Below, one piece after another: positions 5,069-16,316 of a DNA stretch of 64,000 bases. The stretch is from a phage: assembly GCA_036252695.1 (NCBI GenBank), contig GCA_036252695.1_4122.1. The stretch is one strand, 5' to 3'. Below the pieces are notes generated by a model. The model did no database searches and had not been told where the DNA came from. It saw only the letters and a program-made list of their open reading frames with translations. The number at the start of each line of letters is the position of its first letter. Within the stretch, counting starts at the first letter, position 1. Both the position numbers and the translations under genes were made by a program.

Positions 5069-5401
5069 ATGGATTTAAAGCCAATTGTGGTTAACAAATA
5101 CAAAGAACCGTATGATGTGTATATTGGACGTGGGTCTAAATGGGGAAACCCATTTACCCATATTAAAGATAAACAAACTAAAGCCGAATTCATTGTTAGT
5201 ACAAGAGAAGAATCAATTGAAAAATTCAGAGAATACATTATTGAACGTATTTCTTGTGGAGAAGTTAAGATTGATGAATTACTTGAACTCGCAGGGAAAC
5301 GCCTTGGTTGTTTCTGTAAACCAAAATCATGTCACGGCGATGTTCTTGTCGAAATAGTGAGTGCAATATTAGATGAATTACCAGACGATAATGAAGGATG
5401 A
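5069..5401 (+). CDS. DUF4326-family protein
   Basis: Motifs YIGRGSKWGNPF and CFCKPKSCHGDVL characteristic of DUF4326; sits between nrdD and nrdG. Confidence 0.6.
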   Translation: MDLKPIVVNKYKEPYDVYIGRGSKWGNPFTHIKDKQTKAEFIVSTREESIEKFREYIIERISCGEVKIDELLELAGKRLGCFCKPKSCHGDVLVEIVSAILDELPDDNEG

Positions 5402-5843: not shown

Positions 5844-5847
5844 CATA

Positions 5848-5869
5848 AGCACCCATTGGGTGCTTTTTT
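5848..5869 (+). terminator. rho-independent terminator
   Basis: AGCACCC / GGGTGCT hairpin plus T6. Confidence 0.55.
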
Positions 5870-5877
5870 GTTATGTA

Positions 5878-5885
5878 TATAAATA
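5878..5885 (+). promoter_or_regulatory. T4-type late promoter core TATAAATA
   Basis: Exact TATAAATA about 35 nt upstream of the tail-fibre start codon. Confidence 0.4.
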
Positions 5886-5919
5886 CATTAACTAATATCT
5901 AATTTATAAGGGATATATA

Positions 5920-8616
5920 ATGTCAAAGAAAATATATGGTGGCTTGGATGTCACACATAATGTGACAGTTAATGGTAAAAGAACAATACAAGGTATCAAT
6001 GATCAAGTATTTGATGCTAATGGCAATATGGAGCTAGATACTTATTCAAGAGATGAAGTACTAGATATCGTCAGTATGATGCCAATTTCCCATTATGGGT
6101 CACAAAACTATCTTCCTGCTGGTGTATCTGGTGATTTCAATGGTGCATCTGAAAACCAGTCCCAACGTAGAAATAAAATTTTATTAGAAAACGATGGTAC
6201 ACTCGTATTATTACGTAGTGGTACAAACGGTAGTGTTGAGGGATTATATTATTCATATTTGGCTAACGCATTATCAGTTGATGACATGAGCCGTACAATT
6301 AACACCAGTCGTCAATACAAGCCTGGTTTTTTCGGTTCAAATCGCGTCGCAATTGGCTTATACAATACTGATCCAAATATTTTACTCGGTAGATATGTAG
6401 ACACTTCTAACAGTACTAATGGATTGTTTATTTCTATTACTAATGGTACATTAGATGATAAATTACATACTGGTTTTTTTGTAAATCAAGCAGATATTTG
6501 CCCTGAAGGTGGTATAGAATTTGCAATGATGGCTGAAGATGGTTCAATCTATGTCTTTAGTGTTCTTAATGAAAATAACCAACTACAGTTAGTTGTTGTC
6601 CGAGTTGTATATAATATTAGCAATGGAACATATACGGCAACTCGTATTACAGGATGGACTACAAAAACATTCTATAATACAACTTATTCTGCACAGAATA
6701 ACATGGTTATTACTAATCAAGTAACTTCAACTAATATAGCAGATAAGCCTTATGTGTATGTACCACAAAACCTACGTGGTATTGGGATTTATATGACATC
6801 CATTGATTTGTATGTTGCACAGCAACCAGGAACACAGAACTTTCGTTTTAGAATGAATGGTGATGCATGGTTTACAATGGCGACATATAATGCCCGACCA
6901 CAACATAGCTACAGCTTTGCATTTAATATGAGTACTAAACAATGCACCCTAGACGCTGGGAATGACATAGGTTCATATCAAGCACCATTGGTTATAACCA
7001 ATACTGGTTCTGCATTAGTGCCTACAGGTAACGTTTTAAATAATGATCCATTATATAATCATGCTAATGCAAGAAACATTTATAGTTCTTATTTTTACTT
7101 AAGTTCAGGTGAAGCTTTTTGTACTGTGTGTCCAAACTTAGCAGAACCATTACTTATGCAAAAAGCAAAGTTTCCTATACAAATTGTTTATAGTATGATT
7201 AACGTTCGTGCAGTACAATCAACTGATTTTAAAGGTGGAGTTGTTAGACCATCCTTTGGTTCAGCAGTTGGTTCATTTATTAATGGTGTGGAGTTGTTAC
7301 CAGATAATAGTACTAAACAATATTCACGTGCGTCTGGTAGTGGTGGGTTTAGACCATCATATGCAGTTCATAAAAGTACTCCTAATTTTACATTTAAATC
7401 ATTATCTTTAGGAACCATACAAGGTTATGAACCTACAACTGAACGTGGTTATGTAGATGATAATGCCAATAATAGAATTTTCATTAGTAGTATTTCAGGT
7501 TCAACTGTAACAACTAATGGCGGTATTTTTATGGTTGGTCAACGTTATTCACAATCATTTTCATATGATAAAAACTTAAATGGTACTGGTGTTATTAGTG
7601 TTACACAATCAGTTCTAGATAACTTTAGAAATACAGAATATGCTAAAGTTCTAAGTGACTGGAACTTATCTTCACAAGCTTATCGTGATATGACATTATT
7701 TGTTCCACAACAAACTGACATTCCGGCTTTTGTTATGTTGAGTACTATAACAAATGACTATAAAAACTATATTAGAATTGCTGAAGTTAACGTTAATACT
7801 AGAGTTGGAAATATAACATCTATTACCTTTAAGCGTTTAGTACTAGAAAATACATATGGTGAAAACTTTACACCTAATGGTAATGGTTCGATTGCATCTT
7901 CTTCTGTTGGGTTAACAATTTATGATGGTGGTTCATTCTACTTCATTGGTGGTTCTGACCCATTAACACATCCAACAATAGGAAATACAGCAACTCATCA
8001 ATTTAGAGCATATGTAACTAAATCAACTGCACAATTTACAAGTTTTGTTATTACTGGTTCTCATGCCAGTTATGAACAAGGAAGACAACCCACTGCGTTG
8101 CCTGGTATTGGATTTGGTATTTTTGATCCACTGGATTATACAAATAAAATGTCATTTCAAAAATATGGAACAACGATAGCCGACTATAATAACTGGACTC
8201 CACAAGGTAGCCCAATTAACGTAGTATCACAAGACGTTGCTCAAGGGTTTATTGTTTATTTTACAGAGGAAACACCAGTTATACTATCAGGTAAGTCTTT
8301 TACACTACCAGTTTCAAATATTGATTTGAGAACTATAAAATCTAATCCAGCAAATACAACATTTTATGTATATGTTAAATTAGAACAAGGGTTGGCAAAC
8401 TACTACATAACTACTGATGTTATTTCCGAAACAGGAACAACTGCATATAATATTTTTTGGATAGGTACTATTCAAACTAACGCAATTCAAATCGAAACTA
8501 TTAATATACAAAAACGTTCACGTTTAGATATATTTGGTGCTTCACTTGAATCAGCAGGTTCATCGTTCCCAGTTAGCTACGGTCTACCATCACAAACAGG
8601 AACCATAAACTGGTAA
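5920..8616 (+). CDS. tail fibre protein (paralogue A, 898 aa)
   Basis: Large Ser/Thr/Gly/Asn-rich ORF behind a late promoter; N- and C-terminal modules shared with 9232..11961. Confidence 0.7.
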   Translation: MSKKIYGGLDVTHNVTVNGKRTIQGINDQVFDANGNMELDTYSRDEVLDIVSMMPISHYGSQNYLPAGVSGDFNGASENQSQRRNKILLENDGTLVLLRSGTNGSVEGLYYSYLANALSVDDMSRTINTSRQYKPGFFGSNRVAIGLYNTDPNILLGRYVDTSNSTNGLFISITNGTLDDKLHTGFFVNQADICPEGGIEFAMMAEDGSIYVFSVLNENNQLQLVVVRVVYNISNGTYTATRITGWTTKTFYNTTYSAQNNMVITNQVTSTNIADKPYVYVPQNLRGIGIYMTSIDLYVAQQPGTQNFRFRMNGDAWFTMATYNARPQHSYSFAFNMSTKQCTLDAGNDIGSYQAPLVITNTGSALVPTGNVLNNDPLYNHANARNIYSSYFYLSSGEAFCTVCPNLAEPLLMQKAKFPIQIVYSMINVRAVQSTDFKGGVVRPSFGSAVGSFINGVELLPDNSTKQYSRASGSGGFRPSYAVHKSTPNFTFKSLSLGTIQGYEPTTERGYVDDNANNRIFISSISGSTVTTNGGIFMVGQRYSQSFSYDKNLNGTGVISVTQSVLDNFRNTEYAKVLSDWNLSSQAYRDMTLFVPQQTDIPAFVMLSTITNDYKNYIRIAEVNVNTRVGNITSITFKRLVLENTYGENFTPNGNGSIASSSVGLTIYDGGSFYFIGGSDPLTHPTIGNTATHQFRAYVTKSTAQFTSFVITGSHASYEQGRQPTALPGIGFGIFDPLDYTNKMSFQKYGTTIADYNNWTPQGSPINVVSQDVAQGFIVYFTEETPVILSGKSFTLPVSNIDLRTIKSNPANTTFYVYVKLEQGLANYYITTDVISETGTTAYNIFWIGTIQTNAIQIETINIQKRSRLDIFGASLESAGSSFPVSYGLPSQTGTINW

Positions 8617-8627
8617 AGGATTACATA

Positions 8628-9215
8628 ATGGCATTTAAAATAAGAGCAGACCTTAAGGCAATGCAACAAGTTACAGTACAGGGTAAAAGTACTGGACTTG
8701 GTGTATTAGGTAATAATATGACTTATTACCCAACAAATTCAAATGGGGAATGTACATTCCCCTCTATTACCAAAGATGAAGTTAACTTTATTGTCAATGG
8801 ATTACCACTTACACAATACGGAGAATTGTATGATGACGCTAGTCTAAATATTACTTCATCAGGCTATAGTCTTACATTTAATAGACAGATACCATCATTT
8901 ATTGGTGGTTATCTTTATAAATTTCCAGCAGTTTCTATTTTTGCTTCAACTGTTTCATCTGGAACACAAACACAATATGTATATGCAACGTTAGTTCTCG
9001 GTGAACCAATTTATAAAATATCACCAACACAAATACAAGAATCTGAAATTATAATGTTTATTGGAACACTGACCGTTGGTACAAGTGGTATTACAAATAT
9101 AAACATTAATAAAGTATCCAGATTTAGTACATATAGACCTAGTGTTACACAAAAAGGTTCTTCATTCCCAGTCAGTACTGGAAAACCATCAGAAACTGGT
9201 ACAATTGGTTGGTAA
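8628..9215 (+). CDS. short tail-fibre-related protein sharing the fibre C-terminal module
   Basis: 195 aa; C-terminus ...GSSFPVSTGKPSETGTIGW matches the C-termini of both large fibres. Confidence 0.5.
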   Translation: MAFKIRADLKAMQQVTVQGKSTGLGVLGNNMTYYPTNSNGECTFPSITKDEVNFIVNGLPLTQYGELYDDASLNITSSGYSLTFNRQIPSFIGGYLYKFPAVSIFASTVSSGTQTQYVYATLVLGEPIYKISPTQIQESEIIMFIGTLTVGTSGITNININKVSRFSTYRPSVTQKGSSFPVSTGKPSETGTIGW

Positions 9216-9231
9216 ATTAAGGAAAAGAAAG

Positions 9232-11961
9232 ATGTCATCAAAACGAATTATAGGAAGTGCCGAGATCCTTGGGAACTTGGCAATTGGACAAAGGTACGCT
9301 ATGCGTACTTTTAATGGAACCTCACCGAATGCCAATACTGGAATTGTTCAATATCCAATATATAAGCGTTCAGAAGTTCAAAGTATTTTAGATATGTTGC
9401 CTATATCACGTGTAGGAGAAATGGATTACTTGCCATTAAACGTAAGTGGGTCGTATGAAGGTGCTACACCTATGTCAAGTGACCAAGTAGTTCAGCCAAC
9501 AATTATTGAAGATGATGGAACCGCCGTTGTTCTGCGTAGCGGAACCAATGGTAGTACTAAAGGTTTTTATTATTCATTTATACGAGAAATCAGAAATATA
9601 ACCATGATTTCACAAGAAAGTGTTATTTCAACCAATTCAATGTATAAACCTTCAATTATGAGTAGTACAGAGAATATTAAGTATTTTATTGGCTCTAATG
9701 GTTATGAAATGCTTGGATGTTTAAGTACAGAAGATAATTATATTTTTACTATAACTAATGGTACATTCAACGAAGTATCACATATTCATGCTAAAGTACC
9801 AAGTACTTCTTTTGGTAATGATATGCCTATATATACTCATATTGTTGGAACAAAAGTATATATTTGGTGTAAAGATAAAAGTGTTTCTAATTTAGGATTA
9901 GCACTTTCAATTTATACAGTAGAGCTAAGTGATGTGAAAGCAAGCTCAATGGCATCATTAACAAAAGTTACTGGATTATCAGGGCAAACTGTTCGAAATA
10001 CAAGTTATTCTGCATCTAATAACATAAGAGTGTTTGATAGATTATATAGTGTTGGTACTAGCTCGGATTCATTATTCGAAGTTACATCACCAGTCTCACG
10101 TGTAGAATTTTCGGATTATACAGACTTTAATATACAAGCAAACGTTAGTACTGATTTATCCAAAATACGTGTAACTTTATACCCAACCCATAGAATGGTT
10201 ACACCTTTATATATTTCAACAGTGTATGGTACTGGTATCAGTTTTGTTTATAATATAAACTCAAAATCTATGTCACTAGATGGTTCTGCTCGTGCTCCTG
10301 CTACAGTTTCATATGATAATGGATTTCAAGTTTCTAACCCATTTGAAATCAATATGGTCAACTTTACTGGGACAACTGCTGCTGGTGTATTAGGAAACGC
10401 AGGTGGTTTATGTCAAACCAAAGATGGTTTAGTATTTGCATCTAAATTTAGATGGAGTTCAACTGAATTTTATGGTCTACAACGATATAAGGTTAGTGGT
10501 ACACCGTTTGATTCATGGGTTGCTAGTACTAGATCCGCAAGTAACGTTATAAATGCAAACGTTTTACCAGTTTTTGGTAGTGCTGTTGGTGCAAACCTAT
10601 TAGGTGTACGTTTCATCGATAATAGAAAAATATTATTAGCATGTTCTGGTACGTATGATGATGTAACATATAATTATAATAATACTGTTTTTTCTGAAAT
10701 AGGCTCACAACCAACATATCAATATAACTCAGTTCAAAATAATACTACATTAAATGGTTTTGCACCACAATCTAATCGTAAACAAATAGGTGATGATTTT
10801 ACATACACTGCTATGATTTCTCTTGTTGATACCGATGGTAGTGTTAGATGTTATGGAACATCATTCATTGAAGGTGTATATAAAACAAGTGGTGGATTAT
10901 TAAACCCAGATACTTTAGAATTTGATGAAACATATACAATAGAACCAACGGTATTAGAATCATTAAAACAAGATATTTTTGCTAATCTAGGAAACTCTGG
11001 CATTGTTGGTACACTATCTGGACAAATTGTATTATATTATGTACCTGATAATACTTTTTCTAAATCCATTGCAGTAGTTTCAGCATATAATCTTAACAAT
11101 AACCAAGGTTATGCAATCTATGCCGAAGTTGATGTTGTATTATCTGGATCTAACATAACTTCAGCTACATTGGTAAGTACTAGATATGAGACACTTAGTT
11201 CTGTTACAGGAATTATTACTGAAGCATATATGAAACGTTGTACTGGTCTAACAGTTGCTAAATATTCAGGATTTGGTTATATTGGTGTTGATGCAGTTCA
11301 TCAATTTTCACAACCAGGTAATGCACAATTTAAGATGATGATAGCTAAAACAGTAAATGGTGTCATAACATCAAATCGTTTTTTATCATCTAGTTACATC
11401 CAACTCGGTGCAGCATATCAACATGGTGTTATTCCTGGTGTTGGTTTTGGATATTACAATTTTCAAGATTCTGACTATCAAACCAAATCTGTATTCAGCG
11501 TTTTTGGTACAACATCTGCTGAAATGGATGGTTTAATTAGCGGAAATGGTAGCGTTAAAGAAAAGATTGTGGTAGTATCACAAGACGTTGCACAAGGATT
11601 CTCAGTGTACTTTACACGTGAAGTTCCGGTATTTTTAGGTGGAATTTTCGACAGACTACCTATACAAAGTGTAGATTTAAGTACTGTAAAAAATAATCCA
11701 GCTAATACTACGTTCTATTTGTATATACAAATGAACAGGAATACTAAGAAAGCTTCATATGTTATTAGTACTGAAACTATTGATGAATCTTTAACTAGCA
11801 CTTACATTGGTAAGATAGTTACTGGAACTTCAGGAATTACTTCGATTGATACTGAAAAAGTGACTCGTTTTTTGACATATCGCCCAAGTACAACGAAACG
11901 TGGTTCAGCGATACCTGCCAGTACTGGTGTACCGTCTGGGTCAGGCACACGTTGGAAATAA
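9232..11961 (+). CDS. tail fibre protein (paralogue B)
   Basis: ORF track 9142..11961; ATG at 9232 with AAGGAAAAG RBS avoids overlap. N-terminus (LPISxxG..YLP, LRSGTNGS) and C-terminus paralogous to 5920..8616. Confidence 0.7.
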   Translation: MSSKRIIGSAEILGNLAIGQRYAMRTFNGTSPNANTGIVQYPIYKRSEVQSILDMLPISRVGEMDYLPLNVSGSYEGATPMSSDQVVQPTIIEDDGTAVVLRSGTNGSTKGFYYSFIREIRNITMISQESVISTNSMYKPSIMSSTENIKYFIGSNGYEMLGCLSTEDNYIFTITNGTFNEVSHIHAKVPSTSFGNDMPIYTHIVGTKVYIWCKDKSVSNLGLALSIYTVELSDVKASSMASLTKVTGLSGQTVRNTSYSASNNIRVFDRLYSVGTSSDSLFEVTSPVSRVEFSDYTDFNIQANVSTDLSKIRVTLYPTHRMVTPLYISTVYGTGISFVYNINSKSMSLDGSARAPATVSYDNGFQVSNPFEINMVNFTGTTAAGVLGNAGGLCQTKDGLVFASKFRWSSTEFYGLQRYKVSGTPFDSWVASTRSASNVINANVLPVFGSAVGANLLGVRFIDNRKILLACSGTYDDVTYNYNNTVFSEIGSQPTYQYNSVQNNTTLNGFAPQSNRKQIGDDFTYTAMISLVDTDGSVRCYGTSFIEGVYKTSGGLLNPDTLEFDETYTIEPTVLESLKQDIFANLGNSGIVGTLSGQIVLYYVPDNTFSKSIAVVSAYNLNNNQGYAIYAEVDVVLSGSNITSATLVSTRYETLSSVTGIITEAYMKRCTGLTVAKYSGFGYIGVDAVHQFSQPGNAQFKMMIAKTVNGVITSNRFLSSSYIQLGAAYQHGVIPGVGFGYYNFQDSDYQTKSVFSVFGTTSAEMDGLISGNGSVKEKIVVVSQDVAQGFSVYFTREVPVFLGGIFDRLPIQSVDLSTVKNNPANTTFYLYIQMNRNTKKASYVISTETIDESLTSTYIGKIVTGTSGITSIDTEKVTRFLTYRPSTTKRGSAIPASTGVPSGSGTRWK

Positions 11962-11967
11962 TTTTAA

Positions 11968-11996
11968 AGCTCGTCTATTGACGGGCTTTTCTTTTA
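11968..11996 (+). terminator. rho-independent terminator
   Basis: AAGCTCGTC / ACGGGCTT hairpin followed by a T-run. Confidence 0.45.
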
Positions 11997-12028
11997 TGTG
12001 TATAATTGAATAAAAATAGGAGGAAATT

Positions 12029-12595
12029 ATGGTTAAATCTTTGCTACCACCACCAAAACGTCATAAAATCAAAGAAATGAAAGAACAACGTACATTAAAG
12101 ATGTACAACAATTTAGTTCAGTTACTGTGTAAAAGTCCATCGCTCAAAGCAGAGTTTAAAACTGATGATGACCGCAAAGCACTAATTGAGATGAAGTATA
12201 TGCTCAGTAAAATGTCCTTTTACAAATTTGTAAAAGAATACACAACTGACCCATTTAGTCCTCGTTGGAGATCCAAACCAAGAGAGTATTTTTACGGTGG
12301 TTCATATACGGATCGCATTCAAGACACAGTGATGGGAGTTGAATTTGAAATCGATTATGAGCCGAATGGTGTGGAAAGCTGGCCGATTGAGAAACGTTTA
12401 CCAAGTGAAGAAGAAATTTATGTTTATGCAAGAAAACTTTCAAATTTCAGTTCAAGAATTACTCTAGGCAATTTAGATTCATTTATTATTTTCTATACAC
12501 GTGTTGGTGTAGATAAAATGGTAACTAAACTCAATGAACTTTCATTACAACAAAAACAGATTAATGCATACAAAGACATTACTGATTTATACTAA
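12029..12595 (+). CDS. hypothetical protein, tandem paralogue family member 1
   Basis: GGAGG RBS; shares motif (D/N)D(D/N)R(K/R).(L/I)(I/L)..KY.LSK with the next two genes. Confidence 0.5.
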   Translation: MVKSLLPPPKRHKIKEMKEQRTLKMYNNLVQLLCKSPSLKAEFKTDDDRKALIEMKYMLSKMSFYKFVKEYTTDPFSPRWRSKPREYFYGGSYTDRIQDTVMGVEFEIDYEPNGVESWPIEKRLPSEEEIYVYARKLSNFSSRITLGNLDSFIIFYTRVGVDKMVTKLNELSLQQKQINAYKDITDLY

Positions 12596-12601
12596 TGAGG
12601 A

Positions 12602-13123
12602 ATGGATATGTTTTTTGGATCAGTTGGAAAACAAAACAGTACTTTAATTTGGCATGAAATTATCTTTAAAATTATATCTAAAAGCTACTCACTAAAGGAT
12701 ATTATTACCACAGATAATGATAGACGTATCCTGTTAGATGCAAAATATAAATTGAGCAAACACCCTTTACTTTCTTTAATCATTGATTACGTTTGTGATT
12801 ATGAATCTAGTCGTTGGAAGTGGGAAGACGGCGGTTTATTTCGTGGAAAAACATTCTACGGTGCGGAACGATATGTTTTCAGTGATACATCAAATGGCGT
12901 TAAGTTTGTTATTAGAAACTTTAACTCCAAAGAAAATGATTATCTTGAAAGTGGAGTGAAAGTATATATCGATAATAATAGCAATGTACTAACATATGAC
13001 GAATCACTAATTATGTTACAAATAATGCGTGGTGTTGAAGGTGTAAGAAACAACCTTACTAAATTGAAAATCCAGCAAAATGATATACATAATAGACAGA
13101 AAATTAAGGGTTTATATAAATGA
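12602..13123 (+). CDS. hypothetical protein, tandem paralogue family member 2
   Basis: Paralogue of 12029..12595. Confidence 0.5.
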   Translation: MDMFFGSVGKQNSTLIWHEIIFKIISKSYSLKDIITTDNDRRILLDAKYKLSKHPLLSLIIDYVCDYESSRWKWEDGGLFRGKTFYGAERYVFSDTSNGVKFVIRNFNSKENDYLESGVKVYIDNNSNVLTYDESLIMLQIMRGVEGVRNNLTKLKIQQNDIHNRQKIKGLYK

Positions 13124-13629
13124 TTTCATTTTTCAAAAAGAAACAAAAAGTTGATGAAACCGGATTAGAATCGTTTCTATGGACTCTTATCATCAAAAAA
13201 AGTCCATTGATAAAAGAATATGCTATCAATGATGCTAATAGAAAAACTATCATTGAATACAAATATGAATTATCTAAATGTGATCCAATTGTTTATCACT
13301 TTGCGAAGTACTGTTCAAAAAATTTATCGGATATCACAATCTACCACGAGTCAGTCCCAATGAGTTTTCCTTATGGTGATTGGGTAGATACTTTTGATAT
13401 TTTTGATGGGTCAAATGGTTTCAGTTTCTTTTACTCGTCAAATAAAGCAAGTGTTCGTATTAAAACAGACATAGGTTGGACAAAGCATAGCTCAAATAAA
13501 GAAGATTATAATTTATTAGCTGACGTATACCGAAGTGTGAAGAATTCAAAGGATATTGATGAAAGAATTAAAAAGCAAAATCGTATATCTTTATCACTTG
13601 AAACATACAAGTCAAAGTATGGTGGTTAA
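13120..13629 (+). CDS. hypothetical protein, tandem paralogue family member 3
   Basis: Paralogue of the two preceding genes; ATGA start-stop overlap. Confidence 0.5.
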   Translation: MISFFKKKQKVDETGLESFLWTLIIKKSPLIKEYAINDANRKTIIEYKYELSKCDPIVYHFAKYCSKNLSDITIYHESVPMSFPYGDWVDTFDIFDGSNGFSFFYSSNKASVRIKTDIGWTKHSSNKEDYNLLADVYRSVKNSKDIDERIKKQNRISLSLETYKSKYGG

Positions 13630-13631
13630 CT

Positions 13632-14033
13632 ATGACTACAGTTGATGATATCTATAGCACTATACGCAATATGAGTACAGATAGAAAAGTATTTGGCGAT
13701 AAAGAAAAATCTAAGTGTTATGGTATTGATTCTTTTGATATAATTTCTTATGAGTACAATACAAGTGGAAATAGTTCACTGAATATCGTCTGTCCTCGTG
13801 ATCCAGAAAATAATTTTATGTATGTTGAAATTAATAATGATGGAATGTTTTTTACAAAAGTTTTCAAAGGTGGAATTAATTACGAACCTATTGAATGTAT
13901 GAATGAAGAAACTTTCTTTCAAGAAGATACAATTATCAATTTAGGTTTTAGTTTTGATGATTATAAAACATTAGAACATGACTTTAATCGTTATTATAAT
14001 GGTTTCTTAAAGGAGTTAACAATTTATCTATGA
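13632..14033 (+). CDS. hypothetical protein
   Basis: 133-aa ORF; stop overlaps start of next gene. Confidence 0.5.
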   Translation: MTTVDDIYSTIRNMSTDRKVFGDKEKSKCYGIDSFDIISYEYNTSGNSSLNIVCPRDPENNFMYVEINNDGMFFTKVFKGGINYEPIECMNEETFFQEDTIINLGFSFDDYKTLEHDFNRYYNGFLKELTIYL

Positions 14034-16306
14034 ATAACCAATATATTGAACAAACAATAGTGAAACACTTGGCTGGGTCACAAGCCTACGGAACCAGTAC
14101 ACCTGAAAGTGATACTGATTATCGTGGTATTTTTCTTGCTAATAAAGAATTTATTCTTACACCCTTCTATAAGGTCAAAGAGGTAGCTGATAAAAGCGAA
14201 GAAGATACTAAATTCTATGAGTTGAATCAGTATTTAAAATTATACACTGAAGCTAACCCTAATATTCTTGAATCACTTTGGGTTGAACCTGAACACATTG
14301 TTGAAAGTACTGAAATTTATGACTATCTTCGTTCATTTAACCAAAAACTTCTTAGTTCCAAGATTGCATTTTCATATACTGGTTATGCATATAATCAGAT
14401 TAAGCGTATGACAAATCATCACGGTTGGATGGATAAAGAGCATATTGCTGAACGTAAACTAAATGAAATTTTAGAAGAACATCCAGTCGATGAGGTTCTT
14501 GCGTGGATGTATGATTCATTTCCACAATATCTTGTTGAACGTTTAGATACATCGAACTTACATCCATTTAATGCTAAAAAGATTGATTTTGAAAAATATA
14601 TGCGTGATACGTCATTGCAGTTAGTTTCGAAAAATCCATTAAAGCAATATCATTTTGTAAGATTAGTGCATAACTACACTACTGATAAAATTCTAGATCG
14701 TGATTTCAATTTATTGAATTTTAATAATGGCTATGAACTAATTCATTACGGAGAAAACATTTTTGCGATTATTAAAAATCCGAATGAAAGTACTATCAAT
14801 GCTGATGGTTCACTACGTTACTTCAATAAAGAACGTACTTCGGAAGAATTAAAAGTTCGTCCTGAACTCATTGTAAAATTCAATGAAAAGGAATACAAAG
14901 AAAATAGTGAGAACCGTAAGAGTTATCACAAATGGAAGCAGAACCGTAATGCCAAACGTGCTATTCTTGAATCACACCACGGTTATGACTGTTATAGTTT
15001 TGATACTGAATTCTTAACTAAAGATGGTTGGAAGTTATTTGATGATATTACTGAAAACGATCTATTAGCTACTTTTGACAAAAATCACAAAGTTGAATAT
15101 CAGAAATACACTGAACGTTTTGATAATTTATATAATGGCAATCTATACCATTTCACTGGTCATCACCAAGATACTTTAGTGACTGCTAACCACCGAATGT
15201 ATGTTAAGGATTATGCACGAAATCAACAAAAAGATATGTCTGATTGGAAATTTGTAGAAGCAGCACAATTAAAAGAAACATATAAAATTTTGAATACAAT
15301 ATCCCCAATAACTAAAGAACACAAAGATAAAAAAAGTCCAATTGACTACATGGATATCAAAGTTTATCTTCAACTCATGGGATGGTTTATTTCAGATGGG
15401 TGCATAAATTTCAGGGATGGTAAAGTAAAATCTTTATATATTTCCCAGTCAAAAACTAGTCAAGGTATGCGTTGTGCTTTATCAAAATACAAAAAATCTG
15501 GTCAATTAATGTTTAATGAATACATTATAGAAAAGAAAGATTATCAAGCTAATGACGAATCAAGATATACATTCCCAAGTGAAGTAGCTGAAGCATTATA
15601 TAATGATTGTGGACATGGTTCATATAATAAACGAATTCCAAATTGGGTATTTGATTTAACAAAACGTAAAATGGATTTCCTTCTGAAAGGTTTGTTACAA
15701 GGGGATGGAACAAAACGAAATTTAGTTAATGACAATGATACATTTGTATATTATACTGCCAATTCATTATTAGCTGATGATGTTCAAAAACTAGCATTAC
15801 TATGTGGTTATGAAACATCAAAATGGGGACCATACACAAACGAAACCAATTTTGGTAGTGTTGATATATATCAAATTCATATCAATATGAAACCCAAAAC
15901 CGAAAAAATGAACATGAAACAAAATCTTGAAAAAATTCCAGTTACTAATTACAGAACTGTGTGTTTTTCTGTTCCCAACGGAACACTCATTACTCGTAGA
16001 AATGGAAAAACCGCATTACATGGAAATTGCAAACATGCTATGCATACAATCAGGCTGCTGAATACAGCCGAGGAAGCACTTGAAACTGGTATCATCCAAG
16101 TTCACCGACCGGATGCTGCTATGTTGATGGACATTCGTAACGGGAAGTGGTTGTATCAAGAAGTTATGGATTATTTCAACGAAAAGGTTGACTACATCCG
16201 AAATGTGGCGTATCATAAAACTCATCTACCGAAGCGACCGAACATAAAGTTGGCGACAAAGGTACTATTAGATATCCGTGAAATGCAATGGTACAGTAAA
16301 AAATAA
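14030..16306 (+). CDS. Pol-beta superfamily nucleotidyltransferase interrupted by an in-frame intein
   Basis: N-terminal GS...G....SDxD motif (GSQAYGTSTPESDTDYRGIF); residues 321-666 carry intein blocks and LAGLIDADG motifs; flanking extein reads GYD|CKHAMH. Confidence 0.7.
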   Translation: MNNQYIEQTIVKHLAGSQAYGTSTPESDTDYRGIFLANKEFILTPFYKVKEVADKSEEDTKFYELNQYLKLYTEANPNILESLWVEPEHIVESTEIYDYLRSFNQKLLSSKIAFSYTGYAYNQIKRMTNHHGWMDKEHIAERKLNEILEEHPVDEVLAWMYDSFPQYLVERLDTSNLHPFNAKKIDFEKYMRDTSLQLVSKNPLKQYHFVRLVHNYTTDKILDRDFNLLNFNNGYELIHYGENIFAIIKNPNESTINADGSLRYFNKERTSEELKVRPELIVKFNEKEYKENSENRKSYHKWKQNRNAKRAILESHHGYDCYSFDTEFLTKDGWKLFDDITENDLLATFDKNHKVEYQKYTERFDNLYNGNLYHFTGHHQDTLVTANHRMYVKDYARNQQKDMSDWKFVEAAQLKETYKILNTISPITKEHKDKKSPIDYMDIKVYLQLMGWFISDGCINFRDGKVKSLYISQSKTSQGMRCALSKYKKSGQLMFNEYIIEKKDYQANDESRYTFPSEVAEALYNDCGHGSYNKRIPNWVFDLTKRKMDFLLKGLLQGDGTKRNLVNDNDTFVYYTANSLLADDVQKLALLCGYETSKWGPYTNETNFGSVDIYQIHINMKPKTEKMNMKQNLEKIPVTNYRTVCFSVPNGTLITRRNGKTALHGNCKHAMHTIRLLNTAEEALETGIIQVHRPDAAMLMDIRNGKWLYQEVMDYFNEKVDYIRNVAYHKTHLPKRPNIKLATKVLLDIREMQWYSKK
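14990..16027 (+). mobile_element. intein with LAGLIDADG homing-endonuclease domain (346 aa, in-frame)
   Basis: Starts with Cys (CYSFDTEFLTKDGWK, block A), TxxH block B (DTLVTANH), two LAGLIDADG-like motifs (LMGWFISDG, LKGLLQGDG), ends ...ALHGN followed by extein Cys. Confidence 0.6.
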
Positions 16307-16316
16307 GAGGATTGTT

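Follow-up and report, generated by a model that had tools for sequence, protein, structure and literature searches.

What do three adjacent phage genes make together when their products end in the same domain and when all genome records examined, including that of phage 121Q (genes 499, 500 and 501), list each of them as 'hypothetical protein'? The genes lie on the plus strand of contig GCA_036252695.1_4122.1 (assembly GCA_036252695.1), of which a stretch of 64,000 nucleotides, hereafter the window, was analyzed; it is 99.7% identical to the Escherichia jumbo phages 121Q and SHEFM2K (Asteriusvirus). Directly 3′ of nrdD/nrdG, gene A (5920..8616, encoding the 898-amino-acid protein p898) is followed by gene B (8628..9215, 195 amino acids, p195) and gene C (9232..11961, 909 amino acids, p909), which correspond to 121Q gp499, gp500 and gp501, and the intergenic gaps measure only 11 nucleotides between A and B and 16 between B and C. 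On balance, we lean toward the view that these genes are a late host-recognition cassette in which a shared C-terminal module and its tail would serve as an uncleaved oligomerization or registration knob, possibly within an A:B:C heterotrimer.

Three paralogs with a common C-terminal module

When searched with tblastn within the window, residues 77-195 of p195 hit the C-terminal end of p909 at 42.5% identity (E 3e-22) and that of p898 at 36% (E 6e-15), and no further copies of the module were found in the 64 kb. An initial annotation, made by inspection of the sequence, had proposed that three plus-strand genes share a conserved C-terminal module. This proposal holds: the open reading frames (ORFs) are exactly where it placed them, and the E-values, from 6e-15 to 3e-22, are far beyond what chance or mere compositional similarity would give. 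The module, homologous in p898, p195 and p909, is about 120-130 amino acids long rather than the roughly 150 first estimated, and is accompanied by a Trp-terminal tail of 33 amino acids. All three proteins do carry the stated terminal motif G(S/T)(S/A)xPxSxGxPSxxGTxxW, whereas two other motifs described as common to them, SQDVAQGF..YFT.E.PV and NPANTTFY.Y, occur only in p898 and p909, with p195 diverged at those positions (ITSSGYSLTFNRQIP and SSGTQTQYVYA). Likewise, p898 and p195 do terminate in tryptophan (...GTINW and ...GTIGW), but p909 ends in ...GTRWK, where the Trp is penultimate; this residue is invariant in 65 aligned large homologs.

The resemblance between the two large proteins is not confined to their C-termini, as the initial annotation implied. 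Instead, p898 and p909 are homologous over their full length (27% identity, E 6e-59), with identity highest in the module (50%), lower in the tail (36%) and lowest in the intervening body (21%). A further similarity, overlooked in the initial annotation, links the first ~65 residues of p195 to the N-terminal ends of p898 and p909 (E 4e-5).

A common layout can thus be drawn for the three proteins, all features lying on the plus strand. In gene A, an N-terminal element (amino acids 1-75, 5920..6144) combines a helix with an LP(I/L)SxYG...YLPxxVSG motif in which P55, S57, G60 and P66 are invariant among the 65 homologs, and matches both the N-terminus of p195 and residues 94-114 of P0075, a short relative. 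It is followed by a variable body (amino acids ~76-765, 6145..8214) predicted to be all-beta and of propeller type with ~50 strands, by the module (amino acids 766-865, 8215..8514), whose predicted beta-sandwich of the 'shoulder' type is taken from the p195 model, and by the Trp-terminal tail (amino acids 866-898, 8515..8613; KRSRLDxFGxSLExAGSSFPVSYGLPSxxGTINW, class A). Gene B consists of an N-terminal element (amino acids 1-67), an 11-amino-acid linker, the module (amino acids 79-162, 8862..9113) and a tail (amino acids 163-195, 9114..9212; KVSRFxTYRPSxTQKGSSFPVSTGxPxQTGTIxW, class B). In gene C, the module (amino acids ~787-876, 11590..11859) again precedes a tail (amino acids 877-909, 11860..11958; KVTRFLTYRPSTTKRGSAIPASTGVPSGxGTRW[KHN], class C).

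A conserved triad with a body-less member

Three module-bearing genes in the fixed order A-B-C directly after nrdG were found in six genomes, which span at least three genera (Mimasvirus, Eneladusvirus, Asteriusvirus) plus unclassified relatives. Across these triads the tails fall into three classes, namely ...KRSRLDxFGxSLExAGSSFPVSYGLPSxxGTINW for A, ...KVSRFxxYRPSxTQxGSxFPVSxGxPxQxGTIxW for B, and ...KVTRFLTYRPSTTKRGSAIPxSTGVPSGxGTRW+1 for C. Within a class, the tail is the best conserved of all segments (0.85 for class A and 0.88 for class C), whereas the consensus tails of A and C agree at only 39% of positions. Conservation within a class combined with difference between classes is what one would expect of a segment that determines specificity.

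The length of the class B protein sets the triads apart, being 895-916 amino acids in CBB, SNUABM_47 and Yen9-04 and 190-195 amino acids in 121Q-like phages, Munch and Hallingskeid. The large form is a full-length paralog of A and C (26-31% identity throughout). In CBB gp148, residues 1-67 are the site of one match to p195 (E 2e-10), and residues 798-916 are the site of a second (45% identity, E 1e-30). Since p195 matches both ends of gp148, it is a class B chain whose body, ~730 residues, has been lost. The initial annotation had read p195 as a free-standing copy of the module; the module is indeed there, but it is not the sole content, since the N-terminal element is present as well, and the protein is better described as a body-less ortholog of a third large paralog. 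Gene B is under purifying selection, with a ratio of nonsynonymous to synonymous differences (pN/pS) of 0.10 relative to phAPEC6, a comparison in which the genes of the cassette range from 0.05 to 0.10, and 12 clusters keep its length, the most distant at 45% identity.

Sets of three neighboring genes with the module are also present beside baseplate genes in the phiKZ-like phages RAY (423, 1176 and 1161 amino acids), Proteus phage 10 (418, 1155 and 1005) and Xoo-sp14 (a 305-amino-acid ORF, annotated as 241, with proteins of 997 and 972). Phage EL has two module-bearing genes, ORF114 and ORF115, and what appears by eye to be a divergent third copy, ORF116. The paralogy of CBB_147-149 was already listed in supplement S2 of the CBB paper; we found no earlier account of the module or its fold, nor of the tail classes and the body-less chain.

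Predicted structures

An AlphaFold2 model of p898, built with 65 homologs, has a mean predicted local distance difference test score (pLDDT) of 86.7 and a predicted template modeling score of 0.81. Residues ~70-765 form ~50 beta-strands with pLDDT > 90 and the module occupies 766-863, while residues 1-65 and 871-898 fall below 50 in the monomer. Foldseek comparison of this model with the PDB returned beta-propeller proteins only (tandem WD40, DPP4, GH43, sialidase, GH74 and the receptor-binding protein, or RBP, of phi11), with E-values of 1e-6 to 1e-3 and low TM-scores (0.12-0.19). Because p898 matches nothing but propellers, the large proteins A and C are probably globular and of propeller type, a prediction made with high confidence for p898, and the term 'fibres' used for them in the initial annotation seems inappropriate.

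The AlphaFold2 model of p195 places a beta-sandwich core at residues 70-160 with pLDDT 83-95. The module is a structured, conserved domain. The N-terminus is modeled with low confidence as strands and a helix at 49-58, and the tail (163-195) has pLDDT 29-40 and no secondary structure in the monomer. Structural comparison of p195 gave the RBP of lactococcal phage p2 as the leading match (score 8.7, 120 residues aligned), along with the cyanophage A-1(L) tail fiber (7.8), the phage 1358 RBP (6.8), SPP1 gp22 (6.2), the HFTV1 tail fiber (5.9), TssK (5.8, 5.1 and 4.6), a phi812 baseplate protein (5.3) and Bordetella Mtd (4.3); Foldseek returned the same proteins, weakly. These matched proteins are said, in work by Spinelli (2006), Sciara (2010), Veesler (2010) and Nguyen (2017), to share a trimeric 'shoulder' beta-sandwich that docks RBPs or TssK in baseplates. 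As modeled, the fold of the module is that of the shoulder domain of RBPs and TssK.

Family databases add little. A Pfam search at E up to 1 found no family for either large protein and nothing above noise for p195. The three proteins match PHROG profiles 3573, 26864 and 7449 (E 1e-274 for p898, 2e-265 for p909 and 4e-115 for p195), but these have no assigned function, and membership is therefore uninformative on mechanism.

Presence in virions and exchange at a probable host-recognition locus

All three classes have been detected in virion proteomes, each in a related phage. The class A ortholog gp323c of phAPEC6 was identified by mass spectrometry from 4 peptides covering 5.6% of the protein (PMC7247149), and the class B and class C orthologs of GAP32, the latter being GAP32_145, are structural proteins detected by the same method (supplement S5 of the CBB paper). 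The published virion proteomes give peptide counts only, and no C-terminal tryptic peptides are listed in the CBB supplements.

Other evidence points to a role in host recognition. In RaK2, the slot directly after nrdG is occupied by a cluster of tail-fiber and tailspike genes, ORF525-534, which suggests that this position is a locus for exchangeable receptor-binding genes in Rak2-like phages. EL ORF115 joins two kinds of sequence, as its residues 9-261 match the phiKZ-type protein gp131 (E 3e-7) and its residues 273-1185 align to residues ~53-898 of 121Q gp499 (E 3e-10). In the structural atlas of phiKZ, gp131-type N-terminal domains sit at the fiber-attachment sites of the baseplate, and the fibers are modeled as hetero-oligomers of paralogs (PMC13250141).

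Up to the module (positions 5920 to ~8320), gene A is 86-92% identical to phAPEC6, whereas its flanks are 98-100% identical, and the divergent patch has a pS of 0.37-0.40 with a pN/pS of 0.06. We read this as an exchange of alleles that stops at the conserved module. Such allele exchange is common for receptor-binding genes. A part of the gene C body, 9520-10420, is also divergent from phAPEC6; the two stretches together range from 86 to 96% identity, in surroundings of 98-100%, which indicates mosaic exchange limited to the propeller bodies.

One candidate identity was examined and rejected. The 'hairy' whiskers on the tail sheaths of phAPEC6 and CBB are 119 nm long and unlike a globular propeller protein of ~100 kDa, and the triad is present in GAP32, a phage in which the authors of the CBB paper did not expect to find whisker genes.

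Distribution of the module family

An exhaustive profile search recovered 540 cluster representatives of the module family, 319 of them at E up to 1e-10, in two size classes of ~170-250 and ~880-1170 amino acids. The module is terminal in nearly all of them. Among 147 examined members, the last position of the profile, a Trp, lies 0-1 residue from the C-terminus in 79 and at most 10 residues from it in ~130. The consensus tail of the family reads K[VR][ST]R[LF]xx[YF]RxSxxxxG[SA][AS][IF]P[VA]S[TS]GxPxxxGxxxW, and module and tail are better conserved than any other part in phages infecting Escherichia, Salmonella, Erwinia, Pectobacterium, Yersinia, Pseudomonas, Xanthomonas, Proteus and Aeromonas. 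Short members are instructive about the architecture. In P0075, residues 94-114 match p898 53-73 and a module at 109-231 matches p898 772-898; the N-terminal element therefore directly abuts the module, which argues that the body of the large proteins is an insertion of ~700 amino acids. In short members that carry a coiled coil and an NNPH fiber motif, the module is the sole globular domain.

The module is internal in some phiKZ-like relatives (L005, Erwinia phage RAY, 9385-12867; P0144, P0154, P0161, P0142), which have an extra C-terminal domain of ~150 amino acids ending in ...PSAANDYT..W.V.DGPGG..Y.F.L.V.Y. In some members, then, the protein does not end with the tail. When phiKZ gp131-135 were searched with a broadened hidden Markov model, only weak matches resulted, with E-values of 7e-4 to 0.1 from a very small search space. 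We rejected the presence of the module in these proteins, as the matches correspond to the NNPH fiber repeat, which some short relatives carry ahead of the module.

Transcription unit and neighboring genes

The start of gene C was set at ATG 9232, although its ORF is open from 9142, because an AAGGA ribosome-binding site precedes this codon and because the resulting N-terminus is homologous to that of p898: p909 read from here (MSSKRIIGS...) aligns at residue 1 with p898 (MSKKIYGG...). In 121Q, gene C is annotated from a later ATG, equivalent to position 9301 of the window.

A scan for intrinsic terminators placed a terminator-like hairpin on the plus strand at 5847..5865, where it ends the upstream nrdD/nrdG unit, and another at 11966..11989, where it closes the three-gene unit; at positions equivalent to the latter, phage Munch has annotated terminators. 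The hairpin 5′ of gene A (AAGCACCC...GGGTGCTTTTTT) is kept in 7 related phages. Between it and gene A, ~40 nucleotides upstream of the start, lies TATAAATAC (5878..5886, plus strand), a promoter-like sequence that resembles the T4 late promoter. An nATAAATAC element is found at equal distance from the ATG in Munch, CBB, SNUABM_47, Yen9-04, Hallingskeid and phAPEC6, and the terminator together with this element occupies the same position in seven related phages. We infer that TATAAATAC may act as a promoter and that the cassette is probably expressed late. The T4 late promoter octamer, TATAAATA, is rare in the whole 64 kb, with 2 occurrences where 10.5 are expected and at least 2 in all 100 shuffles, an under-representation compatible with a role for it as a promoter signal here. 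A scan for sigma-70 promoters in the window revealed no enrichment (35 sites, 42 expected).

Several features of the surroundings are recorded here in their own right. Between nrdD and nrdG, a small ORF (5069-5401) encodes a DUF4326 protein (E 6e-24), a domain annotated further downstream in CBB (gp154). Just past the cassette terminator, and behind a near-consensus sigma-70-like site (TTGACG-17-TATAAT, 11978-12006), three tandem small genes at 12029-13629 (188, 173 and 169 amino acids; 121Q 502-504) are paralogs of one another, with the common motif ...D(D/N)R(K/R)x(L/I)(L/I)(E/D)xKYxLSK... and no Pfam match. Farther on, at 14030-16306, an RlaP-type nucleotidyltransferase ORF is 758 amino acids long (410 in 121Q); its amino acids 551-601 form a LAGLIDADG_3 domain, which may be an intein or a homing-endonuclease insertion. 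In the compared region 14993-16316, there is no counterpart to 121Q genes 507-509 (3.8 kb), of which two are annotated 'tail fiber' and one encodes 929 amino acids; the window picks up again at 121Q gene 510, an arrangement like that of Escherichia virus TH47 (96%).

A model for assembly and its alternatives

In the model that we favor, three paralogous virion proteins from one late-transcribed cassette would form a single host-recognition appendage, located most probably on the periphery of the baseplate. Each chain would consist of a short N-terminal element (a helix and the LPxSxYG/YLPxxVSG motif), an optional and variable beta-propeller body of ~700 amino acids inserted at a fixed point, the module, and the 33-residue Trp tail. 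Module and N-terminal element would together make the knob that joins three chains in register. The tail, disordered in the lone chain, most likely forms contacts between chains and could act as an inter-subunit clamp, like the interlaced neck that follows the shoulders of the p2 RBP, with its class-specific sequence helping to choose the chain or the docking site. The propeller bodies would contribute variable binding or enzymatic functions, and the module would be retained in the mature protein rather than cleaved off as a chaperone. Chain B of Asteriusvirus could then have lost its body and yet be maintained by purifying selection, since the parts that serve assembly would still be required. 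We slightly favor an A:B:C heterotrimer over three homotrimers, because there are exactly three paralogs in fixed order in a tight operon, and also because the body-less chain is retained under selection, the matched fold has threefold symmetry, and phiKZ provides a precedent. A bolder version would make the A:B:C complex an obligate pseudo-threefold heterotrimer, with chains selected by their Trp peptides, bodies inserted in the knob and B as a 'dummy' subunit, and would see in it a common, unrecognized plan of the baseplates of Rak2-like and phiKZ-like jumbo phages. We advance this version tentatively, and doubt that it is correct as it stands.

Some observations weigh against the favored model. 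The matched shoulders are N-terminal in their own proteins and only 9-14% identical to the module, and the likeness between the folds could be convergent. Evidence from virions is thin, in that gp323c is represented by those few peptides, the B and C orthologs were found in GAP32 but not in CBB, and p195 itself lay outside the published searches because it is unannotated in phAPEC6. In addition, a neighbor-joining tree of the modules recovers A and C as clean groups, but the short and the large B proteins do not come together in it, and the orthology of the B proteins is hence argued from gene position, N-terminus and tail signature. Finally, both the choice between heteromeric and homomeric assembly and the position in the virion are matters that we infer.

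The alternatives differ mainly in what the module would do. If A, B and C were three separate homotrimers, each could be docked by its module and class-specific tail at a distinct site of the baseplate or tail, and a trimer of body-less B would serve to plug a site on which the integrity of the baseplate depends. This arrangement is possible, if not the one that we expect: all matched shoulder-domain proteins are homotrimers that dock via the shoulder, as in the established structures of p2 ORF18, which docks on the baseplate, and of TssK, which docks on TssG, conserved class-specific tails would suit three distinct docking sites, and the phAPEC6 tail displays several distinct appendage positions (PMC7247149). 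However, EL and its relatives carry a gp131-like attachment domain at the N-terminus, so that attachment would be expected there and the module would be distal, and exactly three paralogs in fixed order in a tight operon are more simply explained by a 1:1:1 complex. A distal module is also the starting point for the proposal that it is a receptor-binding tip whose Trp-terminal peptide touches the host receptor, given that the N-terminus would be proximal to the virion in EL and in phiKZ-type fibers. We consider this improbable, since module and tail are the parts most conserved across hosts while the bodies vary with allele exchange, whereas receptor-binding tips normally exhibit the opposite pattern, and since the parts of known RBPs that were matched are assembly shoulders and not heads.

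The initial annotation compared the module to an intramolecular chaperone or a tip-attachment domain. The idea of attachment or assembly pointed in the right direction, as the shoulder fold docks baseplates, but the chaperone half of the comparison has fared poorly. It would have the module drive the folding of the trimer and then be cut off by its own proteolytic activity, as happens in K1F endosialidase and in the L-shaped fiber of T5, with p195 as a copy acting in trans. The C-terminal location, the sharing of the module by proteins with divergent bodies, the small gene between two large structural genes, and conserved Ser and Lys residues near the boundary of module and tail (K865, S875, S881) are all compatible with this explanation. 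Against it, no Pfam family, Peptidase_S74 included, was matched at E up to 1, and the predicted beta-sandwich resembles RBP shoulders and not a helical chaperone domain. Constraint is strongest on the C-terminal Trp and the tail, which one would not expect if this part were thrown away, and the conservation of this Trp at or next to the true C-terminus across hundreds of relatives argues for a function in the mature protein. Moreover, p195 retains a structural N-terminal element and derives from a full-length structural paralog, and short members with a coiled coil and NNPH motif have the module as their only globular domain. Nothing in our analysis indicates processing of the module, and we judge removal as a chaperone to be very improbable indeed. 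A related candidate, p195 as a fiber-assembly chaperone of the Tfa/gp38 type, was rejected on the grounds that it has no Pfam match and is homologous to both ends of the structural paralogs.

Implications

The cassette is nominated here as a candidate for the host-recognition genes within the receptor-binding machinery of 121Q/PBECO4-type jumbo coliphages, and the analysis separates its variable parts, the predicted propeller bodies, from the probable constant assembly parts, namely the N-terminal element, module and tail. With the sequence signature, > 500 clusters of related proteins are recovered from jumbo phages that infect many different hosts. A real heterotrimer would clearly exemplify two things in a phage appendage, the selection of chains by a short peptide at the C-terminus and the reduction of a subunit to its assembly domains. 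The conserved boundaries of the module would be natural splice points for swapping bodies in host-range engineering.

Comparison with known systems

The shoulders of p2 ORF18, the phage 1358 RBP, SPP1 gp22 and TssK have a beta-sandwich fold like that predicted for the module, with no detectable sequence homology (9-14% identity, no Pfam family). In those proteins the shoulder is N-terminal and is followed by a neck and a C-terminal head, whereas the module is at the extreme C-terminus with no head after it. Unlike the shoulders of RBPs and TssK, the module is split from its N-terminal element in the large proteins by an insertion of ~700 amino acids, carries a conserved Trp-terminal peptide, and exists in three paralogous classes. 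The propeller-type body has a parallel in the phi11 RBP (Gp45), which likewise contains a propeller in a baseplate RBP and whose structure 5efv matched p898 (E 1.8e-4). However, the likeness of p898 to this protein and to sialidase, GH43 and GH74 propellers is generic (TM 0.12-0.19) and the architectures differ; no catalytic or sugar-binding residues can be assigned in the p898 body. Peptidase_S74 domains, as in K1F endosialidase and T5 pb1, are similar to the module in being C-terminal domains of divergent appendage proteins and in probably aiding the assembly of three chains, but the module has no S74 signature, its predicted fold is a beta-sandwich and not the chaperone fold, which is largely helical with a coiled-coil stalk, and its very C-terminus is conserved.

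Closest in organization are phiKZ gp131, gp133, gp134 and gp135, which resemble the triad in being adjacent paralogous virion proteins with a conserved assembly region (Sycheva et al. 2012; PMC13250141). They have been modeled as a hetero-oligomeric baseplate fiber, and the beta-propeller of gp131 is thought to bind the host. The region shared by the phiKZ proteins is N-terminal, and their set shows only NNPH similarity and no shoulder-like module with a Trp tail, whereas the window proteins do not have the gp131-type N-terminal domain and possess an N-terminal element of their own of ~65-75 amino acids. The A3 profile gave no detectable sequence match among PDB chains, and gp131 (PDB 4GBF, a seven-bladed propeller) is outside the top 50 Foldseek matches of p898 and has no sequence match to it. 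The bridge between the two systems is found in EL, where ORF114/115 combine a gp131-type N-terminal domain with a body and module of the p898 type.

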